A stretch of 64,000 nt of DNA from an uncultured Gammaproteobacteria bacterium (GCA_963764725.1 CAVXTM010000016.1:32001-96000), one strand, 5' to 3'. Shown: positions 50,502-63,803, counted from the first letter of the stretch. The notes: generated by a model not told the origin, from the letters alone. Made by a program: numbers and translations.

Positions 50502-51410
50502 GGCTCATCGTGAAAGTGAGTGGGTAGAAAATGATGTTTTCACAGCACCGGCAGCATGCAGGTAAGCACCTTAAGGCGCAGGTAATGCTGGTCGCGGAGT
50601 CCGTAGGCGCGGCGCTGGATGACGCGGATCTTGTTGTTGAGTCCTTCGACGAATCCGAGAGAGATCTTGTTCTCTGGTTTGCAATAAGCAGCGATCCCAT
50701 CCCAATGGCGCTCGATCATCTCGGCGAATTTCTCGTACGGTTTCAGGCGCTGCCATTTAAGCGCGTTGCGCCAGTTTTCGAAGAAACGTCGCGCCCAGGC
50801 TTCGCGCTCGTAGCACCACAACTGGCCGAAGGATTCCTTGAGCAGATAAGCGGTATTCAATCGCTTGTTGGCGGCGAGGAGCCTTTTCAGGGCGGCTCGA
50901 CCATCGAGGGTCAGATGCTCCCGCCGGGAGAGCAGCGTATACCTTTGACCCTTGATGTAGCTCCGTTTCTCGCCGCTGAGCCGGGCATACTCCTCCTTGC
51001 GGATCTTATCGAGCGCCTCACCCAGGTGACGCATCACGTGAAATTTATCGAACAGGATAGCCGCCTGGGGTGCTTGTTCTCTGGTACTGTTGCGAAACGG
51101 CTTCCACATGTCCATCACGGCCAAGCGTACCCCCTTGGTTTTACGTGGCCCCAGCCAGGTGAAGAATTCGTCCATGCTGGCCTCCGAGCGACCGGTTCCG
51201 CCGAACCAAATGGGTCGGCCACGGAGGAGATCGCTGACCACGATGCGATAGGTGTGACCCTTGCGGATGGCGATCTCATCGATGCCGATAACCGCAGGTC
51301 CTGGCCGGCCAGCCCGTGCAAGCTGCGCACCCATGTATTGCTTGTCCAACTCCTTGACCGTCTGCCAGTCGAGATCCAACTCATCGGCCACCGCTTTGAT
51401 GGTGCTCGTG
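50502..51410 (-). mobile_element. ISL3-family element, 3' part (5' truncated)
   Basis: IGIDE, MDMWKP, FDKFHV, VEGLNNKI..I.RRAYG; end sequence GGCTCATCGTGAAAGTGAGTGGG. Confidence 0.9.
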
Positions 51411-51753
51411 CGCCAGCTCGCGCTCAGTTGCGGGACGGTGGAGTTGCAGCGGCCGCGGGTACGGGGGGAGGAGGAGCGCTTTGAGAGTCGGCTCTTACCC
51501 TTGTTTGTTCGCCGGACGGAGGGCGTTGCGGAGTTGCTTCCCACCTTATATCTGCACGGGCTGTCGATGGGGGATTTTGAGCTAGCGCTCCGTGGGCTGC
51601 TCGGGGACGGGGCGCCGCTCTCGGGGAGTTCGATTGCGCGGCTGAAGACGAAATGGCAGGGAGAATATGCGGTTTGGAGTCAACGCTCTCTCGCGGAGTT
51701 GGAGGTCGTCTATCTGGGTCGACGGGGTGTATGTAAAAGCCGGATTGGAGAAG
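51411..51753 (+). mobile_element. IS256-family transposase, N-terminal fragment
   Basis: G.VELQRPRVR...FES.LLP...LYLHGLS.GDF..AL..LLG...VDGVYVKAGLEK, cut by the IS3 end at 51754. Confidence 0.85.
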
Positions 51754-51822
51754 TGATCTTGTAAGCTTTCGATAGACGACTTAATCGAGGTAAATTGGAG
51801 TGGACCACGAGAGGAGTCGGAG

Positions 51823-52091
51823 ATGGAGAAACTTAAGCGGCGGCAGTTTACCGCCGAGTTCAAGATAGAAGCGGTGAAGCTGGTGCTCGAGCAGGGCTAC
51901 AGCTATGCCGAGGCAGGCAAACGATTGGGGGTTCTGGCGAAGTTGATAAAGGCGTGGGCAAAGAAATATCGGGGGGGGGGTGAATTGGTTGCCGGTGCGC
52001 CGCGCTTGCGGGTGACACCGGAGCAGCAGGAGCTCAGCCGGTTGCGCCAGGAGGTGCAACGATTGCGGATGGAACGTGACATTCTAAAAAA
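51823..52091 (+). pseudogene. IS3 OrfA interrupted at its frameshift site by IS110
   Basis: RRQFTAEFKIEAVKLV...LRMERDILK, then IS110. Confidence 0.88.
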
Positions 52092-52149
52092 CCTTCTAAG
52101 GGGCGTGCCCACTACCTGTAGGAGTAGAAACTCCGGTGATTTTATACTG

Positions 52150-52300
52150 CCCCGGACGAAGGGAGCGGCCGTTGGCTTTTTGGTGGCATTGACCCCGTAA
52201 AAAAACGTGGTCCAGGGACAGTAGCGCACTTGGCAGTGGTGACACCGTTTCGGTGATCCCGGTTAGGAAAGTGATGATTGAGCGCCGTCCCGCCCTTCGA
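52150..52300 (+). ncRNA. Putative IS110 bridge RNA
   Basis: TATACT at 52143-52148; closing stem CGAAGGG/CCCTTCG; two internal-loop hairpins carrying target- and donor-matching segments. Confidence 0.7.
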
Positions 52301-52328
52301 TTCTTTTGGCAAACGGTGGAGAACGAAG

Positions 52329-53702
52329 ATGGCGCGAGCGAGAAAGCCGAAAGGCAAGCGGCAAACATTATCGGTGGTTCATCCGAAGGCGGCGGGAATT
52401 GATGTCGGCGCACAGATCCACGTGGTTGCAGTTCCGGTGGAACTGGCAGCGGAGGCGGTGCAAACATTCAAAAGTTTCACCCGCGATCTACATCGACTTG
52501 CTGGTTGGCTAGTTGATCTGGGTATCACAACGGTTGCCATGGAATCGACGGGCGTGTACTGGGTCCCCCTCTTTGAGATATTAGAGAGTCGTGGTATTGA
52601 AGTTCTCTTAGTCAATGCCCGTCACGCCAAAGCGGTCCCTGGGCGCAAGACCGATGTCAATGACGCGCAATGGTTGCAACAACTGCACGCCTGCGGTCTT
52701 TTACGCGGAAGTTTCCATCCCGAGCGGGAGGTGGCTGTTTTACGGGCCTACGTGCGACAACGCGATCGGCTTTCGGACTACGCCGCTTCCCATATTCAAC
52801 ACATGCAGAAAGCGCTGAACCAGATGAATCTGCAGCTGCAGCACGTCGTGACCGACATTACTGGTGCCACGGGGTTGACGATTATCCGTGCCATTGTCGC
52901 TGGAGAACGCGATCCTGCGGTATTGGCAAGTTACCGTGATGTACGCTGTAAGGAATCGGTTGAGGCAATCCGCGAAGCGCTCGTCGGTCACTATCTTCCC
53001 GAGCACGTCTTTGCGCTGCGCCAAGCCCTCGAGCTTTATGATTTCTACCAGCAGCAAATCGCCGCGTGTGATGTGGAGATTGAACAGGCCCTGGCCCGGC
53101 TTGGTCACGGGAGGGAATTACCGGCCACCCCCTTGCCCAAGCCCAAGCATCGAGGTCGTGCACCCAATGCACCGAGATTTGATATTCGCATGGCTCTTTA
53201 TACGGTGGTTGGTACCGACGTGACCCAAATCCACGGGATGGGCCCGCACCTCGCGTTGAAACTCCTGGGAGAATGCGGAACGGACATGTCACGTTGGCTC
53301 AGTGCGAAGCACTTCACCTCCTGGCTAGCGTTGGCGCCCGGGAACAAAATCTCCGGCGGGAAATTATTATCGTCCAGAACGCGTCCCTCATCGAGTCGCG
53401 CTGCGGCGCTCTTACGCCTGGCCGCGACCACCCTTGCCAGAAGCGATACGGCTCTGGGCGCCTTTTACCGCCGCCTTGGCGCGCGGGTGGGTAAAGCCAA
53501 AGCTGTCACCGCCACCGCGCGCAAGCTCGCAGTCTTGTTCTACAATGCCCTGCGCTACGGCCTTGATTACGTTGACCCGGGCGCATCGTACTACGAAGAG
53601 CGCTATCGTCAACGTACGCTCTCGAACCTTCGTCAACGCGCGCGAGCTTTGGGCTTTGAACTCTTACCGCGCACGGAGGAGGCCGTGGCGGGAGTTTCTT
53701 AG
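52329..53702 (+). CDS. IS110 DEDD recombinase/transposase
   Basis: GIDVG, MESTGVYW, KTDVND, C-terminal NKISGG serine motif, ATARKLA. Confidence 0.95.
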   Translation: MARARKPKGKRQTLSVVHPKAAGIDVGAQIHVVAVPVELAAEAVQTFKSFTRDLHRLAGWLVDLGITTVAMESTGVYWVPLFEILESRGIEVLLVNARHAKAVPGRKTDVNDAQWLQQLHACGLLRGSFHPEREVAVLRAYVRQRDRLSDYAASHIQHMQKALNQMNLQLQHVVTDITGATGLTIIRAIVAGERDPAVLASYRDVRCKESVEAIREALVGHYLPEHVFALRQALELYDFYQQQIAACDVEIEQALARLGHGRELPATPLPKPKHRGRAPNAPRFDIRMALYTVVGTDVTQIHGMGPHLALKLLGECGTDMSRWLSAKHFTSWLALAPGNKISGGKLLSSRTRPSSSRAAALLRLAATTLARSDTALGAFYRRLGARVGKAKAVTATARKLAVLFYNALRYGLDYVDPGASYYEERYRQRTLSNLRQRARALGFELLPRTEEAVAGVS

Positions 53703-53742
53703 TCCCTTATCCATGAAATCTTGTGCAAAAAAGCAAAGAGTG

Positions 53743-54836
53743 TCATGCATGAGCGGTATTGAGAGCAGGCATGACCACATACTCTCGGATAGCGAGTGCG
53801 CTGCTGAGCACACGACGACCGAATGTCGTGAGGTAGTACTTGTAGCGATGTCCAATCTTTTTGATGAGGCCATGGGTGCGCAAGCGTTTCAACCAGTAGG
53901 AGGCACGGCCGGTGGAGAGATCCCGGAGATGGGCTCGGAGATCGGAGGCGCGAAAGCCGCTGATGTTCCACTCCCCGCGGGCGAGGGTGATAAAAAGGCT
54001 ATGATCTTCACCGAGGAAGAGATTGAAGCCCCGATAGGAGCGGTCTTTCTCTCGTACAGGTTTGGCCATTTTGTCGATGGCGTGCAGAGCTGCATTGGGG
54101 TTATCGATGCTGGCCATGAAGCTGAGATAGCGTTCATTGGCAGCATGCATCAGCTCTCGCAGATCGGGGAGGCTATAGATGTTTTTTCGCAGGGGTGCGA
54201 GTTTGAATTGCTTGCGCCCATTGCGTTGTTCCACCCAACGGTGGTGTTTGAAGAAGGAGACATCGTTGGCGGTGCATTCCACCCGAGCCATGAGACTGAA
54301 TTTATCGTAGAGCTTGAGGCTTGCTGGTCCCATATGATGGCGGATGCGTGTACCCTGAATGCGGGTGTGAAAATCGTTACCGGCCTCCCCGCTGAAGGCC
54401 GAGGTAAGTTTGCGTCCCAAGAAGGTGGCGACGTGTTCTGCCTTGAGGGCATGCACGGCGGTACGCACGATGGCTTGATAGAGGGGTTGGAAATCGGCTT
54501 GGCGGTGGAAGATGACATCGGTCGAGAAAGCCAGGGCCAGGGAGTGGCCCTGCTTGGCGCGCCGAGGATGCAACTCCACCTGCATGCAGCTCCAGTGATA
54601 ACCAGCGCGAAACTGACCCAAGATAGGACAGAAGCTTTTCGCCCATCGGTCCAAACGCCGATGCAAGCCTTTGGGATCGAGGCTATCGGCAAGCGCCTGA
54701 GCCTGTTGGGGATCGCCGATGGACAAGAAGGCATTATCGGCGCGCTCAAAGGCGATCCCTGTCTTGGTCAGTCGTTGGGCTAACCAGTGATGGCCGTTCA
54801 AATAGACCTGCAGGCGAAACGGTGCCCAGGTGGGTA
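53743..54836 (-). mobile_element. 5'-truncated unclassified transposase-like gene with a C-terminal winged helix
   Basis: VPTWAPFRLQVYLNGH.WLA, DNAF, STDVIF, LKLYDK, RVECT.ND, LKRLR.HGLIKK...YKYYLT; putative terminal sequence GTCCCTTATCCATGAAATC at 53702. Confidence 0.6.
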
Positions 54837-55690
54837 CTCTGCGACTCGATTATCCGATGAGGCTATTGTGCCGTGTGATGGGGGTTTCGGCCAGTGGCTA
54901 TTATGCGAGGCTTTGCCGTCCGCCCTCGAAGCGATCGAGGGAGGAGGTGCGCTTGAAGGTCGCGATCGGTGCAGCCCATGAACGCACCCGTGGCACCTAT
55001 GGTGCGGAGCGTTTGCAAAAAGAGCTACAAGCCGAAGGTATTCAGGCGGGGGTGGGGCGGATCAAACGCCTTCGCAAGCAGCTTGGGCTATGTTGCAAAC
55101 AACGGCGTAAGTTCAAAGCCACAACCCATTCCAACCATCGGCTGGCGGTTGCAGAGAACCTCCTCGATCAGAATTTTGCAGCGACTCGGCCTAACCAGAT
55201 CTGGGTCGCCGACATCAGCTATGTGCCGACCGATGAGGGCTGGTTATACCTCGCTGCCCTCAAGGACCTCTACACCTGCGAGATCGTCGGCAGAGCGCTC
55301 TCGGAACGCATGAGCAAGGAGCTCGTGGGCCGGGCGCTGATCCAGGCGGTCGCAGCCAAACGCCCAGCGGCAGGGCTGATTCATCATTCTGATCGAGGCA
55401 GTCAATACTGCTCGCATGACTACCGGAAACTCCTCGAGCAATTTGGCATGAAAGCTTCCATGAGCCGCAAAGGCAACTGCTACGACAATGCCCCGGTGGA
55501 GAGTTTCTTCGCCTCGTTAAAAACCGAGCTCGTTTATCATCGGCGCTACCAGACGCGTCGCCAGGCCGTGGCCGAAATCACCGAGTATATCGACCTTTTT
55601 TACAATCGCCAGCGGCGGCATTCGAGACTCGGGTATCTCTCGCCCATGGCTTTCATTATAAAATACTGGGAGAAACGACAGGCAGCTTAA
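54837..55690 (+). pseudogene. IS3 OrfB (DDE), separated from its orfA
   Basis: WVADISY, HHSDRGSQY, DNAPVESFF, YNRQRRHS. Confidence 0.9.
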
Positions 55691-55724
55691 AAGTTATGGC
55701 GTCCACTATTGACAACCGACCTCA

Positions 55725-57730
55725 CCTTTACCTGATAACGAACAAGAGGGTCGGTCGTATCCTGTTTGAACAACTGCCCAAATACTTCATGCGAAATACG
55801 GCTTTGCTCATCGCGGAACGCGCGCTCGCTCCGGAGTTGATCGAGCCGCCGCAGTATTTGCTCAACTAATGCACCCAGCCTGCTGGGAATGGTGTTTTCC
55901 TCAAAGGAAATGCGAAACGCCTGGACGAAATCGTCGTTCGGGCGCGCCAGTAGCTGGTCGAGCACCAACGGGATACCGTGACGACCCCAGCCGTAAAACG
56001 CTTCCGCTGGGATCTCCGTTTCGCGCTCAAGCCTTGCCGCCTGCCGTACCAATTCGATGTGCTCGGGGGGAATGCCGGTTTCGGGGGCGAGAAAAGCTGT
56101 GTCGTCATCCGTCAAGTCGGCGAGTTTAACGCCTTCCAAAACCGGTTCGAGCTCGGCTAGGTGTTCCTCGTATGTGCAAGCCGCGCATGGTTTACAAAAT
56201 AGACCGGGGCGCATGGTTTACAAATTCTCTCCCTGTCCGTGCCATTGGCTGGGAGGGTTGATTTTCTGGTTTCGCTCATTGAGTACACCCAGAAGATGAA
56301 AGCTATAGCGTACTTCCCACAGGAACTCGTCAATCTGGTGCATGCCGATCGGTTCCTTGGCCAGAATGTCTGAGACATAGAGCAGATGGCCTTTCCACTT
56401 GATTTCGCCATTATGTCGCACCCTTCGGACCGTCACCTCAGTCCCATACGCCACTGGCGGCAGCTTCGTGGGATAACTCCTGGGCGAGGCCGTGTACCGT
56501 TCACGAGGTGTTCGCCGTGCCAGCGCTTCATGGCTACGCTCTGCGTTGTACTCGCTGACAAACGCGTTAAAGCGTTGCTGCTGGGCTTCGAGCGTCGCTG
56601 CAGGAGGCGCCACCGCGGCTTCTTTCAACGTCCGATGCATGCGCTCATGTCGGCCATTCTGATCCGGCCGGCCAGGTTCAATGCGCTCGGGACGGATACC
56701 CAGCCGAATCCACCAGGCCGACAGCCGACTCAACCCACCCACCGCCAGCGAGGCAAAGGGGGCGCCGTTGTCGGTCCGTATAGCTTCCGGCAATCCGTAC
56801 TCCCGAAAGACCCATTCGAACCAAGGCTGGACCTCGGCTCACGTCGGTCGTGCCAGACCTCGGCACTGCAAGAGGTAACGGCTGAAGTTGTCCGTCATCG
56901 TCAGCGGGTAACAGCGCCGGCCATCGCCCAGCACGAAATCGCCTTTGAAGTCCGCGCTCCAAAGGGCATTGGCGCCGTCGCAGTGGAGCAACGGCTCGCT
57001 GTGAGGCGCCACCCGCCGACGGCGGCGACGCGGACCCACCAGACCCGCCCGCTTCAGAATCTCACCCGCCGTACTGTCGGCGGGCCAAGCCACCGCGGGA
57101 TCTTCACGGCGCAACCCATCCATCACCTTCTTCGGCCCAAAACGTTGATGCCGCAGTTTGTACTGCACGATTCTTTCGCACAGCGCCGGTTCACTCGCAT
57201 TGGGATGATACTTGGCCGCCCGCGACCACTCCTTGAGCCCATCCAGCCCCAACCGCTGGTACCGCTCAATCCATTTGTCACCTGTCGGGCGACTGATCCC
57301 ATAAAACTCACACAAATTGATCTTGGGGCACTGACCATTCAACCAGTCACCGATAAATTGAACTCGTTGGTCCATCGCACAGGTCTCTTTCCACGGCATT
57401 GGCGTTTCCTCCTCGCCAATACCATAACTGATGTAAACCATGTGCCCGGTTTGTTTTTGTAAAGGATCATACCGGTTTGTACCCCCCCGTTTGGTCGAAG
57501 ATCCGGACGATCAGGTCAGCGGTATGCTTCTCCGCTCTCCGGAATTGTTCGGCCGCATAGGAGATTTGATATTCGCCATTAGTATCGGTAACCGCTTCAC
57601 CCAGGAATTGTTCCGCACGAAGGTCCTTGTCGAATGCACGAATGATATAGCCGCTTAAGTCGAAGACCTCGCCCGAGCGGCTAACCTTACCTCTTACGAT
57701 AAACCGCACGGTGGTTATAACGGAGCTCAT
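55725..57730 (-). pseudogene. N-terminal part of a large Tc-toxin-A-like protein, split by IS481 and IS3
   Basis: 57730: RAFDKDLRAEQFLGEAVTD..G.Y.ISY; 56172: YEEHLAELEPVL...FLAPETGIP...IPAEAFYGWGR.GIP...YQVK; continues at 62757. Confidence 0.55.
56173..57483 (-). mobile_element. IS481-family element with a frameshifted transposase (57399-56218)
   Basis: MPWKET, WSADFKG, TDNGAPF, NGRHERMHRTLK; TGT end; repeated CATGGTTTACA sites at both ends. Confidence 0.9.
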
Positions 57731-57864
57731 ATCGCTACCTCTTGTGGTGGCCTACCGATTACACACGAGAACGGCTCGCAGAGCGCCGCAAGCAGACTAA
57801 GCGACTGGCTGGGCGCTCCGCGTTATAATTAGATGCTCCTATGGTTAGGAAACGAGGTAGCATC

Positions 57865-58065
57865 ATGAAAGTCGCCGATCTCACGGTTGAACAATTGCGA
57901 ACGCTAATCAAGAAAGTCGTGCACGAAGAGTTGCGCGACCTGATGACCGATCCCGATAAGGGACTGGAACTGACCGACGAGATCCAAACACGGCTGCAAG
58001 CGTCCCTGGCCTCCGAAGGCCGGATCTCCTTCGAGGACGTGCAACGAAGGCTGAATCTCGCTTGA
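57865..58065 (+). CDS. Putative antitoxin
   Basis: GAGG RBS; MKVADLTVEQLR.LI...DPD.GLEL; overlaps the toxin start. Confidence 0.8.
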   Translation: MKVADLTVEQLRTLIKKVVHEELRDLMTDPDKGLELTDEIQTRLQASLASEGRISFEDVQRRLNLA

Positions 58066-58325
58066 CCTATAACGTCGAGTTCACCTCTCAAGCGCTCGAG
58101 GATCTCTCCCGCCTTGATGCCGCAATCGCCAGACGCATCGCCGAAAAAATCCAGTGGCTCGCCGAGCATTTCGATCAAATCCAAGCCGAGACGCTGACAG
58201 GACGCTTTGCAGGTCTGTTCAAGCTCCGGGTCGGTGACTGGCGCGTACTTTACACGACCGATCCGGCTCAACGCATCATCACGGTTCATGTGATTGCCCA
58301 TCGCAGCAAGGTTTATAAGTCCTGA
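58062..58325 (+). CDS. RelE/ParE-family toxin
   Basis: Y.VEF...A..DL.RLD...KLRVGDWRVLY...HRS.VYK. Confidence 0.9.
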   Translation: MTYNVEFTSQALEDLSRLDAAIARRIAEKIQWLAEHFDQIQAETLTGRFAGLFKLRVGDWRVLYTTDPAQRIITVHVIAHRSKVYKS

Positions 58326-58399
58326 CACGCGTGTGCATCGCGCACCTCACTCAACCTTCATTTCCGTTCGGCAAGGCCTCGCCGCTACCGGCCCAATCG

Positions 58400-58880
58400 A
58401 CCGGCAACCCACCCAGAGGAACGTAGCGGTGGAACGACGAATAAGGCCAATCGTCAATCGTCGCCCCAAACCATGCTTCATAGGATTCCAATGCACGTAA
58501 TCGACGTGCCGGGCGTAATCGGCCTCGTCACGAATGACGTGCTCCCAGAAGCGCTGCCTCCATGCCCCTCGCTCTCCTTCGTCATCCGGACCTTCGAGCG
58601 CCGCTCGGTGCGGGGTAGCGCCTGCACGAATCGTATCTTGATCGCCTCCCAGCGATTGGAGAAATCATCATCGCCCGGCGGCAAGGTCCAAATGCAATGC
58701 AGGTAGTCGGGAAAGACCACCCAGGCGTCGATGTGAAACGGCCGCTCCCGCCGCGTCACTCGCACCGCCTCGCGTAGCGCATCGACATGGCGCACCAGCG
58801 TATCCAGCCGCCGCTCCAACAGGGTTCACCGTAAAGAAATAGGTGCCGCCCAGCACCCGAAAACGTCGATAGTCCAACAT
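58400..58880 (-). pseudogene. REP-associated tyrosine transposase (RAYT), frameshifted
   Basis: YRR..V.GGTYFFTVN / F.IDAWVVFPDYLHCIWTLP.GD.DFS.RW / RFWEHVIRDE.DY..H.DY.HWNP.KHG. Confidence 0.85.
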
Positions 58881-58894
58881 AAAACTCCATACCC

Positions 58895-59010
58895 GTCGTA
58901 GGGCGGAAGCCCGAAGGGTGTTCCGCCAAATGGGATAATCCAAATCAACGGCACGCGATCCATCAAATATGTCTCCCTTCACACTCGGCGGAACCCGCAG
59001 AGCCATTCCC
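58895..59010. repeat. REP-like palindromes flanking the RAYT gene
   Basis: GTAGGGCGGAAgcccgaagggtgTTCCGCC, then a degenerate GGCGGAAC... partner. Confidence 0.6.
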
Positions 59011-59085
59011 ATCCGGCGAAACCCATTTCATGGTTCCGTCTTACGCGGGTTCGGAACGTGGTGGATACCCCGTTCCGCGCGGGAG

Positions 59086-59685
59086 CTACCTACGGGCGCC
59101 TTGATACTTTGGTAGGTTGAGCACCGGCCACTTAGGCGGACTATCTCCGGATATGTCCAGCATTCTCTGCCGATCAGCTTCGCGCGAATCTGCTCGTAGA
59201 AGAAACGGTATATTCCACCCTTTGATTTGGCGACTATACTCGCCAGGATTCACTTCCGTTCCGAATCTGTCTCGCTTTTCAAACTCGTAATAATCACGAA
59301 ACCTACCAAAAACCTTGGTTATCTGTATCTCGACAGTGTCTCCCTTCTCCGAAACGCGCCAAGCATAGTCGGCCTCAACTGTTAGGAGAGCGTGTCCAGA
59401 ACCCCATGCTTGATCCGCACCTCTAGCACCTGGCCACCATCCCTCAGACTGTGCCAGGAATTCTTCGGTAAGGTGAAAATGCTCTATGCCGCTACGTTGG
59501 CCTCGGTGTGCTCTAGCAGCCGCTTCTTCGGTCATGCGGCTCAGGCTTTCTTCCAAGAGTTGTGAGTAGGCTTTACCGCAGCCAGACATTACCCATTCCT
59601 TTTCTACTGTAGAGCTTCCGTCAAGAAGTGTGTAAATAAGTTCAGGCGGCCTTTCTGAGGGTGTCATCATTTTTTCGTATGCCAT
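59086..59685 (-). CDS. Hypothetical protein with lower GC, possibly the 3' remnant of a longer gene
   Basis: 199-aa ORF with AT-richer codons next to an IS256 remnant; no recognised motif. Confidence 0.45.
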   Translation of the reverse strand: MAYEKMMTPSERPPELIYTLLDGSSTVEKEWVMSGCGKAYSQLLEESLSRMTEEAAARAHRGQRSGIEHFHLTEEFLAQSEGWWPGARGADQAWGSGHALLTVEADYAWRVSEKGDTVEIQITKVFGRFRDYYEFEKRDRFGTEVNPGEYSRQIKGWNIPFLLRADSREADRQRMLDISGDSPPKWPVLNLPKYQGARR

Positions 59686-59719
59686 CGGCGAACGGGATGC
59701 CGCGATAGACTTCTTTAAG

Positions 59720-59872
59720 TAACCCCGCGGCGTTCAATCGGCGGAACGTCGTTTCAGCGACCCTCATGATTTCCAGATCAGCGCGGTGGCGTTCTCGACG
59801 TTCTTGAACCGCTTGGCGGCATCGGTACGCAGCCGTACGGCGGCAAAGGGCGACTCGATCGGGTTAGTGGTC
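59720..59872 (-). mobile_element. IS256-family transposase, C-terminal fragment
   Basis: TTNPIESPFAAVRLRTDAAKRFKNVENATALIWK. Confidence 0.85.
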
Positions 59873-60814
59873 TGAGGTCGGTTGTCAATAGTGGACGCCA
59901 TAACTTTTAAGCTGCCTGTCGTTTCTCCCAGTATTTTATAATGAAAGCCATGGGCGAGAGATACCCGAGTCTCGAATGCCGCCGCTGGCGATTGTAAAAA
60001 AGGTCGATATACTCGGTGATTTCGGCCACGGCCTGGCGACGCGTCTGGTAGCGCCGATGATAAACGAGCTCGGTCTTTAACGTGGCGAAGAAACTCTCCA
60101 CCGGGGCATTGTCGTAGCAGTTGCCTTTGCGGCTCATGGAGGCTTTCATGCCAAATTGCTCGAGGAGTTTCCGGTAGTCATGCGAGCAGTATTGACTGCC
60201 TCGATCAGAATGATGAATCAGCCCTGCCGCTGGGCGTTTGGCTGCGACCGCCTGGATCAGCGCCCGGCCCACGAGCTCCTTGCTCATGCGTTCCGAGAGC
60301 GCTCTGCCGACGATCTCGCAGGTGTAGAGGTCCTTGAGGGCAGCGAGGTATAACCAGCCCTCATCGGTCGGCACATAGCTGATGTCGGCGACCCAGATCT
60401 GGTTAGGCCGAGTCGCTGCAAAATTCTGATCGAGGAGGTTCTCTGCAACCGCCAGCCGATGGTTGGAATGGGTTGTGGCTTTGAACTTACGCCGTTGTTT
60501 GCAACATAGCCCAAGCTGCTTGCGAAGGCGTTTGATCCGCCCCACCCCCGCCTGAATACCTTCGGCTTGTAGCTCTTTTTGCAAACGCTCCGCACCATAG
60601 GTGCCACGGGTGCGTTCATGGGCTGCACCGATCGCGACCTTCAAGCGCACCTCCTCCCTCGATCGCTTCGAGGGCGGACGGCAAAGCCTCGCATAATAGC
60701 CACTGGCCGAAACCCCCATCACACGGCACAATAGCCTCATCGGATAATCGAGTCGCAGAGACCTCATCAACGCGTACCTCGTAGCGACTCCTTGGCAAAG
60801 TACGCGGTGGCTTC

Positions 60815-62188
60815 CTAAGAAACTCCCGCCACGGCCTCCTCCGTGCGCGGTAAGAGTTCAAAGCCCAAAGCTCGCGCGCGTTGACGAAGGTTCGAGAGCG
60901 TACGTTGACGATAGCGCTCTTCGTAGTACGATGCGCCCGGGTCAACGTAATCAAGGCCGTAGCGCAGGGCATTGTAGAACAAGACTGCGAGCTTGCGCGC
61001 GGTGGCGGTGACAGCTTTGGCTTTACCCACCCGCGCGCCAAGGCGGCGGTAAAAGGCGCCCAGAGCCGTATCGCTTCTGGCAAGGGTGGTCGCGGCCAGG
61101 CGTAAGAGCGCCGCAGCGCGACTCGATGAGGGACGCGTTCTGGACGATAATAATTTCCCGCCGGAGATTTTGTTCCCGGGCGCCAACGCTAGCCAGGAGG
61201 TGAAGTGCTTCGCACTGAGCCAACGTGACATGTCCGTTCCGCATTCTCCCAGGAGTTTCAACGCGAGGTGCGGGCCCATCCCGTGGATTTGGGTCACGTC
61301 GGTACCAACCACCGTATAAAGAGCCATGCGAATATCAAATCTCGGTGCATTGGGTGCACGACCTCGATGCTTGGGCTTGGGCAAGGGGGTGGCCGGTAAT
61401 TCCCTCCCGTGACCAAGCCGGGCCAGGGCCTGTTCAATCTCCACATCACACGCGGCGATTTGCTGCTGGTAGAAATCATAAAGCTCGAGGGCTTGGCGCA
61501 GCGCAAAGACGTGCTCGGGAAGATAGTGACCGACGAGCGCTTCGCGGATTGCCTCAACCGATTCCTTACAGCGTACATCACGGTAACTTGCCAATACCGC
61601 AGGATCGCGTTCTCCAGCGACAATGGCACGGATAATCGTCAACCCCGTGGCACCAGTAATGTCGGTCACGACGTGCTGCAGCTGCAGATTCATCTGGTTC
61701 AGCGCTTTCTGCATGTGTTGAATATGGGAAGCGGCGTAGTCCGAAAGCCGATCGCGTTGTCGCACGTAGGCCCGTAAAACAGCCACCTCCCGCTCGGGAT
61801 GGAAACTTCCGCGTAAAAGACCGCAGGCGTGCAGTTGTTGCAACCATTGCGCGTCATTGACATCGGTCTTGCGCCCAGGGACCGCTTTGGCGTGACGGGC
61901 ATTGACTAAGAGAACTTCAATACCACGACTCTCTAATATCTCAAAGAGGGGGACCCAGTACACGCCCGTCGATTCCATGGCAACCGTTGTGATACCCAGA
62001 TCAACTAGCCAACCAGCAAGTCGATGTAGATCGCGGGTGAAACTTTTGAATGTTTGCACCGCCTCCGCTGCCAGTTCCACCGGAACTGCAACCACGTGGA
62101 TCTGTGCGCCGACATCAATTCCCGCCGCCTTCGGATGAACCACCGATAATGTTTGCCGCTTGCCTTTCGGCTTTCTCGCTCGCGCCAT
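60815..62188 (-). CDS. IS110 DEDD recombinase/transposase, copy 2
   Basis: Translation identical to 52329-53702. Confidence 0.95.
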   Translation of the reverse strand: MARARKPKGKRQTLSVVHPKAAGIDVGAQIHVVAVPVELAAEAVQTFKSFTRDLHRLAGWLVDLGITTVAMESTGVYWVPLFEILESRGIEVLLVNARHAKAVPGRKTDVNDAQWLQQLHACGLLRGSFHPEREVAVLRAYVRQRDRLSDYAASHIQHMQKALNQMNLQLQHVVTDITGATGLTIIRAIVAGERDPAVLASYRDVRCKESVEAIREALVGHYLPEHVFALRQALELYDFYQQQIAACDVEIEQALARLGHGRELPATPLPKPKHRGRAPNAPRFDIRMALYTVVGTDVTQIHGMGPHLALKLLGECGTDMSRWLSAKHFTSWLALAPGNKISGGKLLSSRTRPSSSRAAALLRLAATTLARSDTALGAFYRRLGARVGKAKAVTATARKLAVLFYNALRYGLDYVDPGASYYEERYRQRTLSNLRQRARALGFELLPRTEEAVAGVS

Positions 62189-62216
62189 CTTCGTTCTCCA
62201 CCGTTTGCCAAAAGAA

Positions 62217-62367
62217 TCGAAGGGCGGGACGGCGCTCAATCATCACTTTCCTAACCGGGATCACCGAAACGGTGTCACCACTGCCAAGTGCGCTACTGTC
62301 CCTGGACCACGTTTTTTTACGGGGTCAATGCCACCAAAAAGCCAACGGCCGCTCCCTTCGTCCGGGG
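62217..62367 (-). ncRNA. Putative IS110 bridge RNA, copy 2
   Basis: Inverted copy of 52150-52300. Confidence 0.7.
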
Positions 62368-62756
62368 CAGTATAAAATCACCGGAGTTTCTACTCCTACA
62401 GGTAGTGGGCACGCCCCTTAGAAGGTTTTTTAGAATGTCACGTTCCATCTGCAATCGTTCCGCAACTCCCGCTGCAACCGGGTGAGCTCTGCTTCTACCG
62501 CCGTCACCGGCAAGCGGTTCGACCCCACCTCTCAAGTTTCCCCCCCGAGTTCTTTGCCCACGCCGTTCACTAAGGTCTTCGCTGACATCGATAACCAATC
62601 GATGCCGCCTCGGTAGCTTTTAACCTCTCCTCCACAACCAGCTTCACCGCATTCTCACGAAACTCTTTCGTGTAAACCTGCTTCGGTAACTTATTCATTG
62701 AACACCTCCTTCTCCTATACCCTATCGAAGGCGTCCATTTTTTTCATCCTACCTCA

Positions 62757-62972
62757 AGGCATCCGACCTCGACGCAGGCGCCGAGCCGAAGGACCTGGGT
62801 CAGGATACGACCGACGGACAGGGCTTTTTCACCCTCGTCTTTACACCGGCAAAGACGAACCAATAACGGATGACACCACGCGCCGGTTGCGTCTACGGAT
62901 TAACGACCCAGAGGGCAAAGAACTTGCGACGGTCGAGAAGACGGTCAACGTCAAACAGCCGGTATTACTCAA
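62757..62972 (+). pseudogene. Continuation of the Tc-like gene broken at 55725
   Basis: (K)ASDLDAGAEPKDLGQDTTDGQG...RRLRLRINDPEGKEL; joins YQVK in frame through the AGG duplication. Confidence 0.7.
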
Positions 62973-63803
62973 GGTTTCAGGCGCTGCCATTTAAGCGCGT
63001 TGCGCCAGTTTTCGAAGAAACGTCGCGCCCAGGCTTCGCGCTCGTAGCACCACAACTGGCCGAAGGATTCCTTGAGCAGATAAGCGGTATTCAATCGCTT
63101 GTTGGCGGCGAGGAGCCTTTTCAGGGCGGCTCGACCATCGAGGGTCAGATGCTCCCGCCGGGAGAGCAGCGTATACCTTTGACCCTTGATGTAGCTCCGT
63201 TTCTCGCCGCTGAGCCGGGCATACTCCTGCTTGCGGATCTTATCGAGCGCCTCACCCAGGTGACGCATCACGTGAAATTTATCGAACAGGATAGCCGCCT
63301 GGGGTGCTTGTTCTCTGGTACTGTTGCGAAACGGCTTCCACATGTCCATCACGGCCAAGCGTACCCCCTTGGTTTTACGTGGCCCCAGCCAGGTGAAGAA
63401 TTCGTCCATGCTGGCCTCCGAGCGACCGGTTCCGCCGAACCAAATGGGTCGGCCACGGAGGAGATCGCTGACCACGATGCGATAGGTGTGACCCTTGCGG
63501 ATGGCGATCTCATCGATGCCGATAACCGCAGGTCCTGGCCGGCCAGCCCGTGCAAGCTGCGCACCCATGTATTGCTTGTCCAACTCCTTGACCGTCTGCC
63601 AGTCGAGATCCAACTCATCGGCCACCGCTTTGATGGTGCTCGTGCGGCAGCGCCGCCCGACGTAGAAAGCAAAGCGCTTGGTGTAGAAAGGGTTGTCGGC
63701 CAGAAAGTCCAGACGCTCGCGCTTCACCTTGCCGCACTGCCGGCAATCCACACGCCGGACCTCCAACTCCAGCCGCACGTGCGTATCCCCGCAGGAGAGA
63801 TCT
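62973..63803 (-). mobile_element. ISL3 internal fragment (same element as 50502-51410)
   Basis: DLSCGD, RRVDCRQCG zinc finger, IGIDE; about 660 bp near-identical to the first copy. Confidence 0.9.

Follow-up and report, generated by a model that had tools for sequence, protein, structure and literature searches.

The window analysed here is a stretch of 64,000 nucleotides (nt) from an uncultured gammaproteobacterium (GCA_963764725.1, CAVXTM010000016.1:32001-96000; G000:C16:32001-96000 in our numbering of the draft genome, which consists of 19 contigs). It contains two inverted copies of an insertion sequence (IS) of the IS110 family, each joined to the end of orfA of an IS3-type element, here called IS3-A at copy 1 and IS3-B at copy 2. 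In the reading that we favour and consider somewhat better than an even bet, the IS110 clade targets the A-rich, slippery -1 frameshift site at the end of orfA, and the pair in the window has recombined, which left copy 1 chimeric, copied the left junction of copy 2, and inverted the DNA between the copies. The durable result is that the frameshift site is targeted throughout the clade, together with a guide RNA that would explain the targeting by analogy with characterized systems. An earlier note on this DNA had proposed two independent, site-specific insertions into two different IS3 hosts.

An IS110 clade at the IS3 frameshift site

The element present twice belongs to the IS110 group of the IS110 family and is 1612 base pairs (bp) long; its left end is non-coding and precedes a gene for a DEDD recombinase. 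The recombinase, ~457 amino acids (aa) long and most likely starting at the ATG at 52329 in copy 1, matches PF01548 (DEDD_Tnp_IS110, 73.1 bits), PF02371 (Transposase_20, 44 bits), and NCBIfam NF033542 'IS110 family RNA-guided transposase' (240.6 bits, with a cut-off of 140). The copies are inverted to each other and have 0 mismatches in 1611 nt. The similarity forms two near-identical inverted blocks, 52058-53702 versus 62459-60815 (1645 nt) and 54837-55724 versus 60760-59873 (888 nt). In both copies the first IS110 base is the C directly after CTAAAAAA, at the A6 run that ends an IS3-type orfA, so that the junction lies at the same nucleotide, as the earlier note had it. Apart from this pair and a distant remnant on contig C1, the source genome contains no further IS110 copy, and two IS3-type sites elsewhere in it are empty. 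No IS110 copy more than 57% identical is present in the 60 relatives searched, a statement that partly rests on unpublished genomes (G001 and G012).

A scan of contigs yielded 79 related loci, with recombinases 55-69% aa identical, from Acidobacteriota to Enterobacterales. The right-end motif T[CT]T[TC]AGG is present in 74 of them and is followed by AA in all 73 for which the flank is available, and then by [AG]GC in 37 of those. In 42 of the 79, a left junction of the form [CT]TAAAAAA/C (the slash marks the boundary of the element) lies 1541-1679 nt upstream of the right motif. The clade junctions read YTAAAAAA/C at the left end and GTTTCTTAGG/AA at the right end; a two-base core, AA, is thus present on both sides of the element, within A6 on the left and as AA on the right. 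The upstream open reading frame (ORF) is an IS3-type OrfA (HTH_Tnp_1) in 34 of the 67 loci tested, and the downstream ORF has an rve or HTH_21 domain in 30 of 62. An IS3-type ORF is found on at least one side in 43 of the 79 loci and on both sides in 21. IS630-type ORFs (HTH_29/32/33) are found upstream in about ten loci, and DDE_3 ORFs downstream in three. The IS630-type branch (L048, L052, L055, L072, L077, and L071) is inserted at ..TTTAAAAAA/. Four loci (L010, L052, L072, and L076) have tandem copies, with another IS110 of this clade immediately downstream of the first; in two of them, L010 and L072, the sequence to the right of the first IS110 resembles the left end of another IS110.

Occupied and empty sites can be compared within one bacterium. 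In Candidatus Caedibacter acanthamoebae (G412, L189-L197), the same IS110 is present in seven IS3 copies with identical 250-nt flanks, which suggests that the IS3::IS110 compound may spread there as a unit. One further IS110 is present in an 80%-identical IS3 copy, the flank of which differs within 10 nt of the junction. Across the site of an empty, 83%-identical IS3, the length equals that of the occupied copy minus the IS and one AA, which fits a 2-nt AA repeat. The empty IS3-B-like site in a genome of the same genus as the source reads TATTAAAAAA/GCCACCGCG.

The clade is also common in E. coli. Of 5426 complete E. coli genomes, 546 have a match to a 98% relative of its Salmonella arizonae member, 74 of them over the full length; this relative is annotated only as 'IS110 family transposase' and is probably catalogued in ISfinder. 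At the one E. coli place inspected (L188, NZ_CP091700.1 582272-587852), its neighbours are a partial orfA ('transposase') on one side and a partial 'IS3 family transposase' on the other. Targeting across the clade would account for many annotations of the 'partial IS3 transposase' kind.

The left end of copy 1 (52092-52328) is non-coding and, when aligned over 21 diverse members, folds into two modules of stem, internal loop, and stem. The fold comprises 26 pairs in 5 helices; 94.1% of the cells are paired, compared with 37-50% in slid controls, and 13 pairs change on both sides, a number reached in none of 500 shuffles. In an Rfam scan of 51700-53800, no family corresponds to this RNA, and the only hit is a chance microRNA match (E 0.17). 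In module 1, the 5' loop strand (52172-52180, UUGGCUUUU) is antisense to AAAAGCCAA, and the 3' loop strand (52198-52206, UAAAAAAAC) is the sense of the left target, to be compared with CTAAAAAA. The antisense strand AAAAGCCAaCGg faces the core and the right target AAAAGCCAcCGc of IS3-B, and the reverse complement of 52169-52180 (AAAAGCCAACGG) matches IS3-B (AAAAGCCACCGC) at 10 of 12 positions. In module 2, UUAGGAA is the sense of the right end CTTAGG plus the AA core in all 21 aligned sequences. Members with AAAGGC.. guides occupy A6GGC targets, and the IS630-type branch has guides AAAACTTT.. and a loop AAGUUUU instead of GCUUUU, fitting its AAAACTT flank.

Taken together, the loci of the relatives elsewhere and the guide-target matches in the element's own RNA strongly support site-specific insertion at this nucleotide of IS3 orfA. 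By extension from the work on IS621 and ISEc21, the left-end RNA would guide the recombinase to the slippery site, which belongs to the few parts of IS3 genes in which the nucleotide sequence itself is conserved. As a target, the slippery heptamer of other transposons is multi-copy, harmless to the host, plasmid-borne, and held constant in nucleotide sequence by its own function.

The chimeric copy and the inversion

Copy 1 starts with the left end TGATCTTGTAAG at 51754 and has OrfA (MEKLKRRQFTAEFK, MEKLKRRQ..) from 51823; copy 2, on the minus strand, starts with TGAGGTAGGATG at 62756 and has OrfA MNKLPKQVYTKEFR (MNKLPKQV..), both as previously described. The left ~300 nt belong to different IS3-family elements, with 127 of 239 aligned columns identical upstream of a shared 34-nt stretch. 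The notion of two different IS3 hosts therefore holds for the left sides, but not for the right sides, which are both IS3-B (885 of 888 positions identical), with a multi-copy element, here called ISX, inserted in copy 1.

Copy 2 is a whole IS3-B split by the IS110 at the orfA-end site. Beyond the IS110 the same IS3-B resumes with AA and the 54-nt orfA tail, GCCACCGCGTACTTTGCC.. (ATAYFAKES.., up to a stop codon), followed by orfB (matching rve, HTH_21, and rve_2/3) and the right end. The two ends are a cognate inverted-repeat pair with 22 of 32 positions matching, and an intact relative from a metagenome (L106) has the same pair. Without the IS110, the element is 1270 nt long, compared with 1271 nt in L106. 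Its features fit the IS3 family, namely an orfB with an rve core, imperfect TG..CA inverted repeats, and a 3-bp target duplication, now split. The A-run is A6 in IS3-B, after removal of the IS110 and one AA, and in the empty same-genus copy (L085, G003), and A7 in L106. Because A6 puts neither the orfA tail nor orfB in the usual frame, the copies in the window and in the same-genus genome were probably already dead before. No intact IS3-B able to supply transposase is present in the source genome; on contig C18, a 137-nt fragment of the IS3-B left part precedes an apparent IS5-type gene, as judged by eye.

Copy 1 is a chimera that consists of the left part of IS3-A, the IS110, a truncated ISX, and the right half of IS3-B: its left end is that of IS3-A, its right end that of IS3-B, the two ends are not paired, and the flanks are non-contiguous. 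Only the left 338 nt of IS3-A are present (HTH_Tnp_1 in orfA at 59.8 bits). This part is unique in the source genome, giving a single BLAST match, and no IS3-A right half is found anywhere in that genome, nor is the reciprocal product of the recombination. Position 51754 is a putative IS3-A end, proposed from the frame break of the IS256-type gene and the TG start; it is unlike the TGAnGTGGnCTA ends of the nearest IS3-A relatives. The remainder of the IS256-type copy is absent from the source genome, which holds only 82%-identical relatives of it.

The 3-bp target duplication of the IS3-B insertion and the gene that the insertion cut are both split between the two copies (Table 1). One IS3-B insertion thus has one of its ends on each copy, the arrangement that recombination between inverted repeats would produce. 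Joining the flanks at 55725 and 62757 lengthens the frame of the cut gene by 30 codons, and the rejoined frame rebuilds across the joint a motif (..A.D.D......LG...TD..G) that also occurs further upstream in this protein. In local alignment the rebuilt repeat scores 41, versus 21.8 +/- 4.1 for shuffles, a value reached in 1 of 2000. Because the duplication and the gene are both split in this manner, the inverted copies are shown, from the organization of the locus, to have recombined and inverted the 4.1 kb between them. In a check of the inversion by synteny, the cut gene had no homologue in the 40 relatives searched, and Pfam gives no significant match for the gene pieces 62759-62863 and 57467-57730.

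Table 1 Positions of the features discussed (window coordinates; a slash marks an element boundary)
Feature	Position	Strand	Remarks
IS110 copy 1	52092-53702	+	1611 nt; last base (G) lost to ISX insertion
IS110 copy 2	62425-60814	-	complete, 1612 nt
34-nt orfA end, copy 1	52058-52091	+	..QRLRMERDILKK; ends in A6; holds left target and core; 33/34 shared with copy 2
34-nt stretch, copy 2 version	62426-62459	-	..RLQMERDILKK, A6; looks foreign to IS3-B
AA core at copy 2 right junction	60812-60813	-	..TTTCTTAGG/AA/GCCACC
IS3-A left part	51754-52057	+	putative left end TGATCTTG..; 5' part of orfA from 51823; Pfam HTH_Tnp_1
IS3-B left part	62460-62756	-	left end TGAGGTAGGATG at 62756; orfA decayed, with at least 2 frame changes and a stop
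IS3-B right part, copy 2	59873-60811	-	orfA tail (ATAYFAKESLRGTR, then stop); orfB 60770-59907; right end 59873
IS3-B right half, copy 1	54837-55724	+	orfB 54830-55690; right end ..CGACCTCA at 55724; 54-nt orfA tail missing
CCT, one half of 3-bp target duplication of IS3-B insertion	55725-55727	+	partner at 62757-62759
CCT (AGG on + strand), second half of duplication	62757-62759	-	gene cut at 55725 continues from here
Bridge RNA, target-binding module 1	52167-52212	+	covarying fold and guide matches
Bridge RNA, second (donor-binding) module 2	52214-52296	+	UUAGGAA in 3' loop strand, 52263-52269
ISX, 1141 nt of a ~1690-bp multi-copy element	53699-54839	-	inserted in TTAG of IS110 right end; truncated at 3-nt overlap with IS3-B
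IS256-type (Mutator family) transposase gene fragment, left flank of copy 1	51261-51753	+	Pfam Transposase_mut; frame (..GVYVKAGLEK) ends at 51753

All three differences between the IS3-B right halves (55456, 55514, and 55522) fall within 67 nt. A partial IS3-B copy on contig C5 agrees with copy 1 at 55456 and with copy 2 at 55514 and 55522, which suggests a small conversion patch.

Origin of the shared left junction

The near-identity of the ~35 nt before the junction, noticed earlier, is borne out as 33 of 34 nt. As a control, the same stretch was compared in 253 pairs from 23 distinct IS3 hosts of related IS110s, which have 21.2 identical positions on average and 32 at most. Since none of the control pairs reaches 33, the identity of the two stretches in the window is far beyond chance.

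The shared stretch encodes (Q)RL[RQ]MERDILKK and looks foreign to IS3-B. Among the orfA ends of the IS3-B clade, RL[QR]M occurs in 0 of 40 distinct sequences, 38 of which begin with A (AEVK, AEAR, AELK, etc.). The two nearest IS3-B relatives, L106 and the same-genus copy in G003, read ..RELAEV[KR]MERD[IV]LKK, and IS3-B-type DNA at this position is GAAGTG.GGATGGAGCGAGAT.TATTAAAAAA-like. The motif [KR]RL[QE]ME is found in 4 of the 7 closest IS3-A-like relatives, which are only 42-51% aa identical. The orfA of copy 1 stays in frame through the boundary of the stretch. Just to the left of it, copy 2 has one extra codon and a 1-nt loss that breaks the frame, relative to L106 and the G003 copy. In both copies, the shared stretch starts with AA.

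Because the 34 nt are shared at 33 positions, are IS3-A-like, and look foreign to IS3-B, the two left junctions would be one junction copied by recombination. We have moderate confidence that the 34 nt are IS3-A DNA brought into copy 2 with the left end of the IS110 by recombination, not by transposition. The left junction of copy 2 would have been made from a junction of the copy-1 type by homologous recombination or gene conversion, and gap repair or gene conversion ending at microhomology (the shared AA) would give its present form. One other account of the stretch, in which the 34 nt are part of the mobile unit, was rejected: relatives in other hosts differ in their flanks as far as the A-run, and in copy 2 the IS3-B stretch has been replaced, with nothing added to it.

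The independence claimed by the earlier note gives way at this point, as one locus is a chimera and the ~35 nt look as if they derive from the other IS3 type; its site-specificity stands on the 79 related loci and the guide matches, but the local pair has a shared, probably recombined junction. Identical elements at identical sites in inverted orientation recombine, and shared junctions therefore cannot be counted as separate events. The pair would go back to between one and three true transposition events.

The independent-insertion account can be recast as separate IS110 insertions into an intact IS3-A and an intact IS3-B, followed by crossovers inside the identical IS110 pair, conversion of the flank, and the insertion and deletion of ISX. 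We regard it in this form as possible but distinctly the less probable history. The clade is site-specific, and an A-like left flank with a B-like right flank is impossible from a single insertion; this combination indicates that both IS3 types have at some point been involved, at the homologous site, with the IS110 or its junctions, which favours the earlier reading. The further hit in Candidatus Caedibacter shows that separate insertions into diverged IS3s occur (an 80% copy, with the flank differing within 10 nt), and the IS3-B right halves differ at 3 of 888 positions while the IS110 copies differ at 0 of 1611. However, nothing is private to either junction, the flank being shared at 33 of 34 positions and the IS110 at 1611 of 1611. 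In addition, IS3-B follows both IS110 copies, the genome has no IS3-A right half, and the account requires no fewer than three IS3 elements as well as several additional events.

Several observations weigh against the recombined-junction reading that we prefer. The chimera with an A-type left and a B-type right side needs an origin, and two independent insertions with a crossover within the IS110 would give it. No close relative of IS3-A was found in the genomes and plasmids searched, and the term 'A-like' refers to a short motif in relatives 42-51% identical. For IS3-B, DNA identity to the nearest relatives does not exceed ~77-88%, and a private IS3-B variant with the 34 nt is conceivable. 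On the side of the clade, about half of the related loci have no adjacent IS3 part (some are IS630-type, some tandem IS110 arrays, and some short contigs). A donor guide for the left end of the element (CCTTCT..) was not found in the left-end RNA. The covariation of guide and target is partial on the right side, GCUUUU loops being found at many loci whose flanks are AAGGC; AAAAGC is common to nearly all targets, and the loci share ancestry. Finally, the public reads hold no run with this genome (the best share of sampled words is 0.10 among 22 listed runs).

The search for IS110-free copies of the two hosts, which the earlier note had proposed, gave none for IS3-A and, for IS3-B, copies too distant to decide from DNA identity alone which element the 34 nt belong to. 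The closest IS110-free IS3-B elements are the same-genus copy (77-88% DNA identity) and the metagenome contig (83% aa identity in orfB). For IS3-A, a DNA search of the source genome and 60 relatives returned only the self match and one 38-nt match in a relative, a plasmid search returned one 70-nt match only, and at the protein level 7 of 401 genomes of the class, the source genome included, had a match, at 42-51% identity.

If the 34 nt were native to IS3-B, one insertion would suffice: a compound IS3-B::IS110 would have been mobilized in trans, and copy 1 would have crossed with IS3-A 34 nt before the A-run. The common IS3-B right half, the non-contiguous flanks of copy 1, and its orfA, which keeps its frame through the boundary, as after a homologous crossover, all agree with such a history, and the seven identical flanks in Candidatus Caedibacter fit the spread of a compound. 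Yet RL[QR]M is absent from all 40 IS3-B-clade orfA ends, copy 2 has the extra codon and the 1-nt loss relative to L106 and the G003 copy, and the genome lacks an intact IS3-B to supply the transposase; we consider this origin unlikely.

Frame changes and errors in the length of A-runs are typical of long-read consensus. An assembly or polishing artefact, in which reads of one junction overwrote the 34 nt of the other or a contig join within repeats made the chimera, is in our view very improbable. In its favour, the genome is a 19-contig draft, and copy 2 has several frame changes in orfA and A6 where L106 has A7. Against it, A6 is also found in the G003 copy from the same genus, the 34 nt still contain one mismatch, the joints ISX/IS3-B and IS3-A/IS110 are unique and could not be created by repeat collapse, and the five ISX copies (at least 99% identical) have flanks that differ right up to TTAG, which indicates that the assembly does not generally homogenize the flanks of repeats.

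Comparison with known systems and neighbouring elements

IS621 naturally targets REP-like sequences rather than another IS. Within the IS110/IS1111 superfamily, homing into conserved parts of other mobile elements is also known from IS4321/IS5075 and from the IS1111-attC group. They are members of the IS1111 group, have subterminal inverted repeats and an RNA located downstream, and target transposon terminal repeats or attC sites.

The nearest precedent is ISEc21. This element of the IS110 group targets a conserved stretch within IS3-family transposase genes, at the second D of DDE in orfB (seekRNA study of Siddiquee et al. 2024, PMC11187229). The clade described here resembles ISEc21 in belonging to the IS110 group, in having an upstream non-coding region, and in having its natural target inside IS3-family genes; in both, moreover, the RNA strand with the sense of the target top strand lies 3' of the other guide strand (PMC11187229). 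In contrast to ISEc21, the clade inserts at the slippery A-run at the end of orfA, ~0.3 kb into the IS3 element from its left end and before any part of the rve domain, and one branch inserts in IS630-type genes. Targeting of the ISEc21 type, at the second D of DDE in orfB, was therefore rejected for the window, where the insertion lies at the orfA end. No duplication is reported for ISEc21 (PMC11187229), whereas the clade has AA on both sides. Homing of the IS110 group into IS3 genes is thus already known from ISEc21; what differs here is the slippery site at the orfA end, the AA core, and the reach to IS630-type genes.

The window element is like IS621 in having a DEDD recombinase and a structured left-end RNA with two internal loops (Durrant et al. 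2024, PMC11208160). By the rule given there for IS621, the left guide pairs with the bottom strand, its right-hand counterpart with the top strand, and each of them reads the core as well. The strands of module 1 match this rule, with the sense of the left target, the antisense of the right target, and the core included. The core is AA in the clade and CT in IS621, and the element is larger, with 1612 bp and ~457 aa compared with 1279 bp and 326 aa given for IS621 in a preprint (bioRxiv 10.64898/2026.08.14.744561). The clade of the window would be a natural bridge system with an AA core. Our search of the literature, which did not extend to ISfinder entries, found no description of IS110 elements at the IS3 frameshift site, and the accessible part of the supplements of Durrant et al. 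2024 has no entry for this target (TAAAAAA, TTTCTTAGG, or IS3). Because RNA-guided IS110 recombinases are under development as genome-writing tools, the natural targets of these elements are worth knowing.

More tentatively, this widespread clade may be a dedicated hyperparasite of insertion sequences whose bridge RNA reads their programmed-frameshift slippery sites, in IS3 and in one IS630-type branch. The resident recombinase, or breaks made by it at empty sites, would then cause occupied IS3 copies to recombine with empty ones, giving chimeras such as copy 1, copying the IS110 with its flanking DNA, and producing the inversions; we would not rate this broader proposal as probable. If it were true, each hit would uncouple orfA from orfB and leave the ends of the host IS intact, and the host IS could therefore still carry the IS110.

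ISX has five full copies in the source genome (e.g. L186:148-1838, contig C18), mutually at least 99% identical, in addition to split and partial ones. TTAG borders every copy on both sides, as shown at both ends of the five full copies, and no terminal inverted repeats are seen. The full-length ORF encodes 520 aa. The protein belongs to no Pfam or NCBIfam family, and its look-alikes in an atlas search are 'hypothetical proteins' from several phyla; ISX may represent an undescribed transposase family. In the proposed sequence of events, ISX would have inserted later into the TTAG of the IS110 right end in copy 1, and a deletion at the 3-nt overlap would then have removed ~550 nt of ISX together with the 54-nt orfA tail.

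The gene cut by IS3-B is present as three pieces, 57467-57730, 55725-56214, and 62759-62863. It is also interrupted by an IS481-like element on the minus strand (56218-57441), which has two ORFs, with HTH_32 and LZ_Tnp_IS481 followed by rve_3. The whole nest is flanked by two truncated ISL3-family transposase genes in direct orientation (50540-51410 and 62969-63778, minus strand), which have at least 300 identical nt in common (50739-51038 and 62973-63272).

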